From a virus (Duplodnaviria; Heunggongvirae; Uroviricota; Caudoviricetes): a stretch of DNA of 17,868 nt. Where the stretch lies: IMG/VR virus record IMGVR_UViG_2617271049_000015, positions 1 through 17,868 of that record. One strand, 5' to 3'. The notes under the pieces were generated by a model, which was given only the letters and a program-made list of their open reading frames with translations, had not been told where the DNA came from and did not search any database. Every line of letters starts with the position of its first letter. The first letter of the stretch is position 1. Shown in pieces: positions 16,194 to 17,455 of this stretch. Position numbers and translations under genes: made by a program.

Positions 16194-16562
16194 ATGAAAT
16201 ATAGTTCAACATTTTCGATGCTTTCATTTTTTATACTATTTGCCTGTAATGAGACAGCTGTTTACGGTTCTGATGAAAACATTATTTTTATGAGGTATGT
16301 GGAAAAATTACATTTAGATAAATACTCTGTTAAAAATACGGTAAAAACTGAAACAATGGCGATACAATTAGCTGAAATATATGTTAGGTATCGCTATGGC
16401 GAACGGATTGCAGAAGAAGAAAAACCATATTTAATTACGGAACTACCAGATAGTTGGGTTGTTGAGGGAGCAAAGTTACCTTATGAAGTTGCGGGTGGTG
16501 TATTTATTATAGAAATTAATAAGAAAAATGGATGTGTTTTGAATTTCCTACATAGTAAATAA
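16194..16562 (+). CDS. Putative Rhs immunity protein (122 aa) with signal peptide and lipobox-like Cys
   Basis: AAGGAG SD 5 nt upstream; N-terminus [18 protein letters not shown]; sits directly 3' of the toxin domain; stop overlaps the next ATG (TAATG). Confidence 0.65.
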
Positions 16563-17259
16563 TGCTGGCGCTGATGGATGCGGATGGAAACATTGCGTGG
16601 AGCGGGGAGTATGATGAGTGGGGCAACCAGCTGAATGAAGAGAGCCCGCATCACCTGTATCAGCCATACGTCTGCCGGGCCAGCAGTACGATGAGGAGTC
16701 GGGGCTGGATTATAACCGTCACCGGTACTACGATCCGTTGCAGGGGCGGTATATCACCCAGGACCCCATTGGGCTGAAAGGCGGGTGGAATCTGTATCAG
16801 TATCCGCTGAATCCGGTGAGCAGGATAGATCCGTTGGGGTTATTCTCATGTGAGAGTTGTAGTCATTTTATAGATGATATAAATAATAAACTGGATAACC
16901 TTCCGTTTAACCCGACAAAAATGTTTACAGCTAGTTTAAATACTGCTAATTCAGCAAGGCTGTATGCAAGTGGCATGACAAAATTCGGTATAAGTGTTGC
17001 TGCCGATGGAACGATCATTGCTGCCCCAGTCGGTGCAGCTTCTATGGCTTTAGGGGCGTGGAATATAAAATCTGCGACAGCTGCATATAACAGAGCAAAT
17101 TTACAATTATCAGAATCACTTCAGGAAAATGGTAGAGATAGGTGTTGGAGAAATTTATTGGGTGTTTTACCTTATGGTGAGCAGTTTGATGACCCTGTGA
17201 ACCATCAATATTTGACGTTTATGGTGAAAAGATTGAGAATATCAAAGATTCTCCAATGA
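16562..17259 (+). pseudogene. Orphan Rhs core-end plus C-terminal toxin module, interrupted by a 1-nt frameshift near 16668
   Basis: Second copy of the Rhs core end ([24 protein letters not shown] / [13 protein letters not shown]...DPLGL) split over two frames; CATACGTCTGCC here versus CATACCGTCTGCC in the first copy; the toxin domain has a Gly/Ala-rich hydrophobic segment. Confidence 0.7.
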
Positions 17260-17293
17260 AGTTTTTTGAAGAGCTTGGGACGCTGGGGTTGTA

Positions 17294-17455
17294 ATGTGTA
17301 TTTTTAATGATATTTTTATGTTTGTGTTTATTGTTAGTAGTATACTTGTAACCGTGCATTTTGTGTATTCTTTATTTTTTAAAAGTGGAAAGGTAAAAGA
17401 TAAGGTAAAAAAATGGATTAAAGTAATGTGTGATTTATTTTGGGGGATAGGATAG
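17294..17455 (+). CDS. Small hydrophobic ORF (53 aa), possible immunity protein for the second toxin
   Basis: Not in the supplied track (under 60 aa); one predicted TM helix then a Lys-rich tail; start follows a 12-codon mini-ORF that itself overlaps the toxin stop; weak SD. Confidence 0.3.
   Translation: MCIFNDIFMFVFIVSSILVTVHFVYSLFFKSGKVKDKVKKWIKVMCDLFWGIG

Follow-up and report, generated by a model that had tools for sequence, protein, structure and literature searches.

Orphan rhs-CT/rhsI modules are found downstream of main rhs genes, for example at the rhsD-ybbC-ylbH locus of Escherichia coli K-12 and among the orphan tips of Salmonella, and they are accounted for by a model of displacement and recombination. 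Here, we describe a module of this kind in a 17,868-nt stretch of DNA (IMG/VR record IMGVR_UViG_2617271049_000015, positions 1 to 17,868; hereafter the window), the sequence of which is 100% identical, N-runs included, to scaffold HG977190.1 of E. coli D6-113.11. The module occupies positions 16562-17455, and all coordinates refer to the + strand of the window. We consider it probable that this is the first orphan toxin/immunity module of its locus, composed of a displaced, doubly frameshifted toxin and an intact open reading frame (ORF) of 53 amino acids (aa).

Among toxins that act on membranes, Tse5 (RhsP1, PA2684) of Pseudomonas aeruginosa is an Rhs-delivered, pore-forming tip of ~150 aa, with Tsi5 as its membrane immunity protein (PMC9637101, PMC10684867). 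Hydrophobic CdiI proteins accompany the ionophore toxins of contact-dependent inhibition (CDI), namely CdiA-CT of E. coli EC93 and its relatives (PMC11630599). EsxX of Staphylococcus aureus is a glycine-zipper toxin that depolarises membranes (PMC12744356). A sequence-only reading of the window, made before this analysis, had proposed that the present module encodes a membrane-targeting toxin with a membrane immunity protein. That reading is right in outline, with several details wrong.

Results

An orphan module with two inherited frameshifts

Four observations identify an orphan Rhs C-terminal module at 16562-17455, as the sequence-only reading had it. The core fragment ends in the cleavage motif PxxxxDPxGL. 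The module lies 3' of a full-length rhs gene and the immunity gene of that rhs, an arrangement visible in two sister contigs (L049 and L050). It has neither an Rhs body nor a proper start; homology begins at the core residues …LALISEDG, and the ATG at 16562 arises incidentally from the TAATG junction common to ylbH loci. Finally, the same tip and candidate immunity gene occur on full-length rhs genes elsewhere, namely in LR536431, CP027445, CP027459, and eight S. sonnei-type genomes.

The module had been counted as the second orphan of the locus, following another toxin/immunity pair upstream. However, the upstream ORF (15315-16154, 279 aa) takes its first 23 codons from the ompT-envY spacer and the remainder from an rhs end, the two being fused across 10 N. 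In N-free sister contigs, the Rhs core continues 5' of window position 15394, and in L049 and L050 an rhs ORF of at least 1139 aa is followed by ybbC and then by the orphan module. Because these contigs show continuous rhs sequence upstream, the 279-aa ORF is a chimera over a scaffold joint. The supposed first orphan belongs to a full-length rhs gene, of which it forms the 3' end and which the N-run at 15384-15393 interrupts; the module at 16562-17455 is therefore the first orphan of the locus.

To locate lesions in the module, we took three E. coli chromosomes with the same tip (97-98% identity) and aligned them to the window. A C is absent at 16669/16670, where the window reads CCATA-CGTC and four comparators read CCATACCGTC. 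A G is absent at 17196/17197, where the window reads CCCT-GTGAA and the intact LR536431 gene, in which the tip closes an intact Rhs protein of 1411 aa, reads CCCTGGTGAA; the other two E. coli genomes show a silent T/C difference at this site. The missing C that the sequence-only reading placed near 16668 is thus real, but it is not a single lesion. The second frameshift cuts the toxin short, so that the conserved final ~45 residues are lost.

The ORFs 16738-17259, 17256-17294, and 17294-17455 are present, joined by ATGA and TAATG overlaps, and had been taken for a chain of overlapping small ORFs. The 12-codon ORF among them is the C-terminus of the toxin in a shifted frame, a by-product of the second deletion, and the ATGA overlap is the point at which the shifted frame first reaches a stop. 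Distant homologues align through this 12-codon stretch (…EELGTLGL), in which an E-x-G-T motif is conserved. The shifted-frame stop TGA (17257-17259) overlaps a Met codon of the original frame, and the stop of that original frame overlaps the start of the 53-aa ORF. Judging from this arrangement, translational coupling to the candidate immunity ORF could survive by accident.

It is highly improbable that the frameshifts are errors in a gapped draft, with the tip truly an open frame that is silent for want of a start and ready to recombine. Both deletions do fall within 2-nt homopolymers (CC to C and GG to G), a source of error that had been raised for 16660-16675, and the source scaffold is rich in N (855 N within 6.2 kb around the locus). 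However, six recorded assemblies contain exactly the 71-aa product that the first, frameshifted piece yields. One is HG977190.1, whose annotation also lists the 173-aa and 12-aa products. The remaining five come from separate projects (one is metagenomic) and consist of N-free contigs; in each, both deletions recur at the identical bases, and no more than one substitution in 2.3-2.5 kb separates it from the window. Moreover, ~4.2 kb of neighbouring coding sequence contains no frameshift relative to close relatives, and a Salmonella relative of the tip is likewise decayed. Because five independent N-free assemblies share both deletions, sequencing error is excluded, and the deletions are inherited mutations. 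The second of them lies inside the unique tip, and the stranded toxin is therefore a pseudogene in this lineage.

An unannotated family of Rhs toxin tips

Searches of the curated Pfam and NCBIfam libraries returned no match above the gathering thresholds for the tip, its family profile, or six small ORFs, and neither the tip nor the profile matched any PDB sequence. A first, word-indexed homologue search with the tip also gave no matches, likely because full-length Rhs proteins are clustered at 90% identity under representatives with other tips. We then used exhaustive phmmer against 1.84 billion cluster representatives, with the 118-aa in-frame piece of the window as the query, and obtained 106 representatives at E<1e-3, 48 of them at E<1e-10. 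The tip domain was C-terminal in 103 of 105 representatives. Where enough upstream sequence was available (73 representatives), DPxG lay within 70 residues in 54, and DPxGL stood directly before the conserved NPTK in 42. The precomputed Pfam matches of the homologues were to Rhs-shell domains only. By sequence, the tip belongs to an unannotated C-terminal toxin family.

An alignment of 60 family members (A5) showed K13, D103, and D104 to be invariant, with N10, E78, G94, P97, G99, and E107 conserved at 97-98%; a motif of the form RN..G.LP.G...DDP.EP is conserved in the family. We applied AlphaFold2 to this alignment, with a homologue 55-59% identical to the window tip as the first row. The resulting model of the homologue (predicted local distance difference test, pLDDT, 94.2; predicted template modelling score, pTM, 0.84) shows two 34-residue helices arranged as a hairpin (11-44 and 48-81), followed by short helices. 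The 26 residues at the tip of the hairpin (family residues 35-60) are 4% charged and 43% Gly/Ala, and glycines G31, G45, G47, G51, and G58 are conserved. The 25-residue peptide singled out by the sequence-only reading does sit in the toxin tip.

Another arrangement involving Gly/Ala-rich tips was seen in a related record (L007, positions 1041-1861). There, one toxin/small-ORF pair is followed by a second orphan Rhs end with a different Gly/Ala-rich tip (…MAASLVGMAASATAIMTPAEAIGFGAGVVGAW…) and then by another small hydrophobic ORF, forming an array of putative membrane-toxin orphans.

A conserved 53-residue membrane protein adjoining the toxin

The 53-aa ORF had been described as a single-pass membrane protein, and this description is borne out. 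Its maximum Kyte-Doolittle hydropathy over 19 residues (KD19) is 2.35, and AlphaFold2 predicts two helices, 2-28 (transmembrane, TM) and 34-52 (amphipathic). A basic, Lys-rich linker separates the helices, and the amphipathic tail contains the conserved pattern W-I-K…D-L-F-x-G-I-G. By the positive-inside rule, this tail should be cytoplasmic.

To establish what follows the toxin elsewhere, we checked related loci, first 11 and then 20 more from metagenomes (8-sequence alignment). A homologous small ORF, 47-62 aa long and mostly 53 aa, lies directly 3' of the toxin in 23 of the 31 loci. Ten of the first 11 have a 47-54-aa ORF of the same build that starts at or overlaps the toxin stop, with the shared tail motif (R/K)-W-I/L-K-N-V/I-x-D-x-L-F-G-x-G. 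These ten loci come from metagenomes, a Syntrophobacteraceae metagenome-assembled genome, Amantichitinum ursilacus, Burkholderia lata (with a 1458-aa Rhs), and a Salmonella enterica fragment. Of the 20 metagenome loci, 13 have a clear family member (hidden Markov model, HMM, E<=1e-9), and in the other seven, whose toxins are more distant, the small hydrophobic ORFs are of other kinds and 65-95 aa long.

In four loci with distant toxins (L030, L031, L035, and L036), the partner is a protein of 65-76 aa with two hydrophobic segments, encoded just 3' of the toxin stop. The tails of these proteins faintly recall the 53-aa family (…LKKIWDSITLLDI; …LAELLKDLFWRW). Such resemblance suggests that the candidate immunity family has one-TM and two-TM branches.

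An HMM built from nine members other than the window ORF scored that ORF at 31.7 bits (E 3.5e-9 among 431 window ORF segments). Leaving out the close Salmonella member gave 16 bits (E 2.5e-4), and neither score was attained in any of 2000 block shuffles. A profile search of 5.8 billion proteins returned 39 clusters, nearly all of exactly 53 aa, all named 'hypothetical' and with no Pfam domain. Given its position, and given that it persists next to decayed toxins in both E. coli and Salmonella, the 53-aa protein is very probably the immunity protein of the tip.

The Salmonella enterica 'plasmid' record pSA20051401.3 (L016, 2729 bp) holds, at 1722-2369, a multiply frameshifted relative of the tip (61% identical) and an intact 54-aa homologue of the 53-aa ORF ending …KIICDLFWGIG. 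It also holds a barstar-family gene and a SymE toxin gene, and its appearance is that of part of an rhs locus that was circularised or misassembled.

The 53-aa ORF varies among the five sister assemblies. In L048, TAG is changed to TTG at window-equivalent position 17454, and in L049, W50 is replaced by a stop at 17442, both changes lying in the conserved tail. They account for two of the four substitutions found in ~2.4 kb across the five assemblies. On these sequences, and with no promoter signal above chance, ongoing selection on the stranded immunity gene is doubtful.

Intact systems in Shigella sonnei and E. coli

The exact 53-aa protein is on record as 'Uncharacterised protein [Shigella sonnei]' (for example, FORC11_1748); it occurs on at least 1000 contigs and is listed in 1819 index blocks. 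In eight large S. sonnei-type assemblies, the ORF stands directly after an intact tip on Rhs ORFs of 1108-1411 aa, and both bases absent from the window are retained. The name 'rhs core protein with extension [Shigella sonnei]' is attached to members of the tip cluster, and full-length Rhs proteins with an intact tip sit next to vgrG.

Among 5426 complete RefSeq E. coli genomes, the tip is present in only three: LR536431 (L001), CP027445 (L002), and CP027459 (L015). Each of these has an annotated internal stop, in vgrG in LR536431 and in rhs itself in CP027445 and CP027459. In the literature searched, we found no paper on the tip, on CP044151, or on an S. sonnei Rhs effector.

A mosaic core and the probable displacement of the tip

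The core remnant of the orphan module is assembled from sequences of different types. Between 16540 and 16640, identity to the ybbC/ylbH junction of the rhsD locus is 100%; within this stretch, the core part (16564-16640) agrees with the ylbH type at 77 of 77 positions, against 61 of 77 for the resident type. At 16761-16842 the relation is reversed, with 81 of 82 positions identical to the resident (LR536431/S. sonnei) type and 65-66 of 82 to ylbH. The middle 120 bp (16641-16760) differ by 8-15% from the ylbH type, from the resident type, and from the rhs end of the window itself, and the first deletion falls in this divergent stretch. From its sequence, the stretch could represent a third donor or a mutation-rich recombination joint.

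The simplest history suggested by the mosaic core is one of displacement. This tip would formerly have closed the resident rhs gene, an arrangement that S. sonnei and a few E. coli still retain. An incoming cassette would then have recombined in, bringing an rhsD-type DUF4329 tip, ybbC, and ~80 bp from the start of a core remnant of the ylbH type. The main gene would thereby have gained a new tip, and the old tip with its immunity gene would have been pushed downstream, without a start codon or an Rhs body.

The sequence-only reading had further supposed that the silent module is available for recombination into a full-length rhs gene. The orphan core and the core end of the main gene in the window are 87% identical over 219 bp, and their longest perfect matches (27 bp at 16681 and 26 bp at 16721) both lie downstream of the first deletion. 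A crossover at either block could bypass the first frameshift, but the second, being in the unique tip, would travel along with it, and the supposition is not supported.

Layout of the locus

The features of the locus are collected in Table 1. The stop of the ybbC-type gene overlaps ATG 16562 (TAATG, 16560-16564), and homology to the 3' end of the Rhs core begins right there, confirming the junction reported by the sequence-only reading. The 3' end of the main rhs gene, core end and tip together, shows 96.8% identity to the corresponding end of rhsD in 1862 E. coli genomes. Upstream, window positions 1-15383 consist of DLP12-prophage/ompT sequence, which halts in the ompT-envY spacer at the 10 N.

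Table 1. Features of the rhs locus in the window
Feature	Position	Strand	Basis
N-run; scaffold joint between ompT-envY intergenic region and rhs 3' end, rhs body missing	15384..15393		DLP12/ompT match ends 15382-15383
Main rhs gene 3' end: core end (…DPMGL) and DUF4329 tip, rhsD-type CT	15394..16154	+	Pfam DUF4329 1.3e-37
Cognate immunity gene of main tip, YbbC/YhhH family, Imm-NTF2-2	16194..16562	+	Pfam PF15631 4.4e-26; ybbC annotation in E. coli genomes
Orphan Rhs core remnant ending DPLGL, mosaic; 1-nt deletion 16669/16670	16564..16842	+	Alignments to main rhs genes and ylbH type
Toxin tip, 150 codons once repaired; deletion 17196/17197; stop TAA 17292-17294	16843..17294	+	Intact copies elsewhere
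'12-codon ORF': displaced final 12 toxin codons, no separate gene	17256..17294	+	In frame with tip in every intact copy
53-aa single-pass membrane protein, candidate immunity protein; start overlaps toxin stop (TAATG)	17294..17455	+	KD19, AlphaFold2, related loci, HMM
Third Rhs core remnant, tiny, truncated (G-Q-stop-Y-D-E-E-A-G, ~30 bp)	17566..17595	+	Aligned to LR536431 feature 'RHS repeat-associated core domain, incomplete'
ISAs1-family (H-repeat, ydcC-type) transposase gene start, runs past window end	17749..17868	+	Translation; ISAs1/ydcC annotation in E. coli genomes

On the source scaffold, the module is followed by ISAs1 and then by pptA and yddH, a flank common to the vgrG-linked rhs of LR536431. 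As judged from these neighbours, the locus is a vgrG-linked rhs locus of the K-12 rhsE type that carries an imported rhsD-type cassette. An rhsD locus, suggested by the rhsD-CT/ybbC/ylbH-type junction, was ruled out by the ISAs1-pptA-yddH flank downstream.

The third core remnant contains an in-frame TAG, and ~61 bp present in LR536431 are absent here, just before the ISAs1/H-repeat element. In three sister contigs (L045, L047, and L048; about 1-1520, minus strand), the sequence just upstream of the rhs 3' end holds a big Rhs-shell ORF in inverted orientation, where L049 and L050 have an uninterrupted rhs gene. This reflects either an inversion between rhs copies or an assembly chimera at the repeat. 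A promoter and terminator scan gave nothing above shuffles; one site, at 17212-17240 on the + strand, was seen and is not relied on.

Discussion

Proposed mechanism and alternatives

We propose that the 150-aa tip, in its intact form, is severed by the aspartyl protease of Rhs, which would cut after DPLGL, and that it is kept within the Rhs shell and delivered on VgrG by a type VI secretion system (T6SS). Release after DPLGL and T6SS delivery are suggested by analogy with characterised Rhs effectors (PMC9637101, PMC10684867). The Gly/Ala-rich end of the helical hairpin would then enter the inner membrane of the target cell and dissipate the membrane potential. The 53-aa protein, predicted to be N-out with one TM helix and a basic, cytoplasmic amphipathic tail, would bind the toxin in or at the membrane and block it. 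In D6-113.11, the surviving ORF could confer immunity to S. sonnei-type attackers.

We lean somewhat towards the inner membrane as the site of toxin action, because the hairpin tip is charge-free and rich in Gly/Ala, the partner is little beyond a TM helix, and there are subfamilies with other tiny TM partners. The wider proposal is that the tip stands for a class of toxins, new and widespread, that Rhs proteins deliver and that act on membranes through ion leak or pore formation, that it serves as the payload of the vgrG-linked Rhs effector in S. sonnei, that immunity is provided within the membrane by a single-pass peptide of 47-53 residues with a conserved amphipathic tail, among the smallest immunity proteins known, and that E. 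coli lineages such as D6-113.11 keep the stranded immunity gene as protection against S. sonnei-type attackers. This wider proposal we hold tentatively, at slightly less than an even chance.

Several observations weigh against membrane action, and some of them would suit a soluble toxin with an enzymatic or protein-binding target, whose partner is merely membrane-anchored and whose Gly/Ala stretch reflects 'alacoil' packing. The KD19 maximum is 1.49 in the window tip and about 1.0 family-wide, below the usual threshold of 1.6, and each hydrophobic arm spans only ~14 residues. The segment that the sequence-only reading compared to a glycine zipper is indeed Gly/Ala-rich and charge-free, yet the canonical motif, (G/A/S)xxxGxxxG or GxxxGxxx(G/S/T), is absent from the window tip. 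Nor is it enriched in the family, where the strict form GxxxGxxxG occurs in nine of 60 sequences and the relaxed form averages 1.6 occurrences per sequence (1.36 after shuffling). Polar residues that are invariant or nearly so (K13, D103, D104, E78, and E107), together with the RN..G.LP.G...DDP.EP motif, would also suit an enzyme or a binding site, and the AlphaFold2 model is both confident and compact. However, we found no similarity to any enzyme family or fold, and a partner of roughly one TM helix and a 20-residue amphipathic tail offers little with which to occlude an active site. In addition, distant members pair with other tiny one- or two-TM proteins, as membrane-acting toxins do (PMC9637101, PMC11630599). 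On balance, we regard a soluble toxin as unlikely. The conserved TM partner makes a membrane toxin with a membrane immunity protein, the central proposal of the sequence-only reading, the best inference, whereas the zipper part of that proposal is not retained.

The role assigned to the 53-aa protein must also be weighed, since the ORF is disrupted in two of the five sister assemblies (by W50stop in L049 and by stop-loss in L048, both in the last codons). Nonsense and stop-loss variants in an orphan-bearing lineage would fit a protein that is not an immunity factor at all, but an adaptor that serves to secrete or stabilise the hydrophobic tip, or itself a small membrane toxin. Known T6SS adaptors (Eag/DUF1795, DUF4123, and DUF2169), in contrast, are larger, soluble, and encoded upstream. 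The spot right 3' of the toxin, with a stop/start overlap, is the standard place for Rhs and CDI immunity genes, and the family is retained beside decayed toxins in two genera. Roles other than immunity thus seem to us very unlikely.

The layout of the locus is ordinary for Rhs loci; what sets it apart is a toxin/immunity family without a curated model or a paper in the literature searched. The tip forms the end of full-length, vgrG-linked Rhs proteins in very many S. sonnei assemblies. If it is a membrane-depolarising toxin, it names an effector of the S. sonnei type VI system. It would then represent a second sequence family of Rhs pore-formers beside Tse5, and its 53-aa partner a very small model of a single-pass peptide that blocks a membrane toxin. 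The window is also a clean example of how an orphan is made, with a ylbH-type 5' core and a resident-type 3' core, and of how it later decays.

Comparison with known systems

Like the present tip, EsxX is a C-terminal toxin that is small, helical, and rich in Gly, and its immunity protein is located in the membrane, as is predicted here. It differs in that the canonical zipper is absent from our tip, and in its delivery system and sequence family.

Like the CdiA-CT toxins of E. coli EC93 and relatives, the tip is a polymorphic enterobacterial toxin with a small, very hydrophobic membrane immunity protein, and it may likewise act on the inner membrane. Those toxins, however, follow VENN and comprise an entry domain and a predicted five-helix bundle, whereas ours is an Rhs tip with a predicted hairpin and short helices.

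Tse5 offers a precedent. In both cases, an Rhs-encapsulated, VgrG-linked tip (149 residues in Tse5 and 150 here) would be released after DPxGL, no enzymatic function is predicted, and the immunity protein is a small inner-membrane protein, as predicted in our case. However, Tsi5 has two predicted TM segments (PMC9637101) and the 53-aa protein one, and the activity of Tse5 is proven, while that of our tip is predicted. The family profile gave no match to Tse5 among PDB chains at E<=10; the only Tse5 chain seen there is the 1121-residue shell.

With respect to genetic organisation, the module can be compared with the K-12 rhsD-ybbC-ylbH and Salmonella orphans. Its tip and immunity gene are unlike ylbH/ybbD, and it stands in an rhsE-type locus. 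Unlike those orphans, its toxin has two inactivating deletions, one of them beyond repair by recombination. In common with them, its DPxGL core remnant, divergent tip, and small immunity gene follow the main pair in the company of an H-repeat/ISAs1 element, and its ybbC/orphan junction is base-identical to that of the ylbH orphans in 1862 E. coli genomes.

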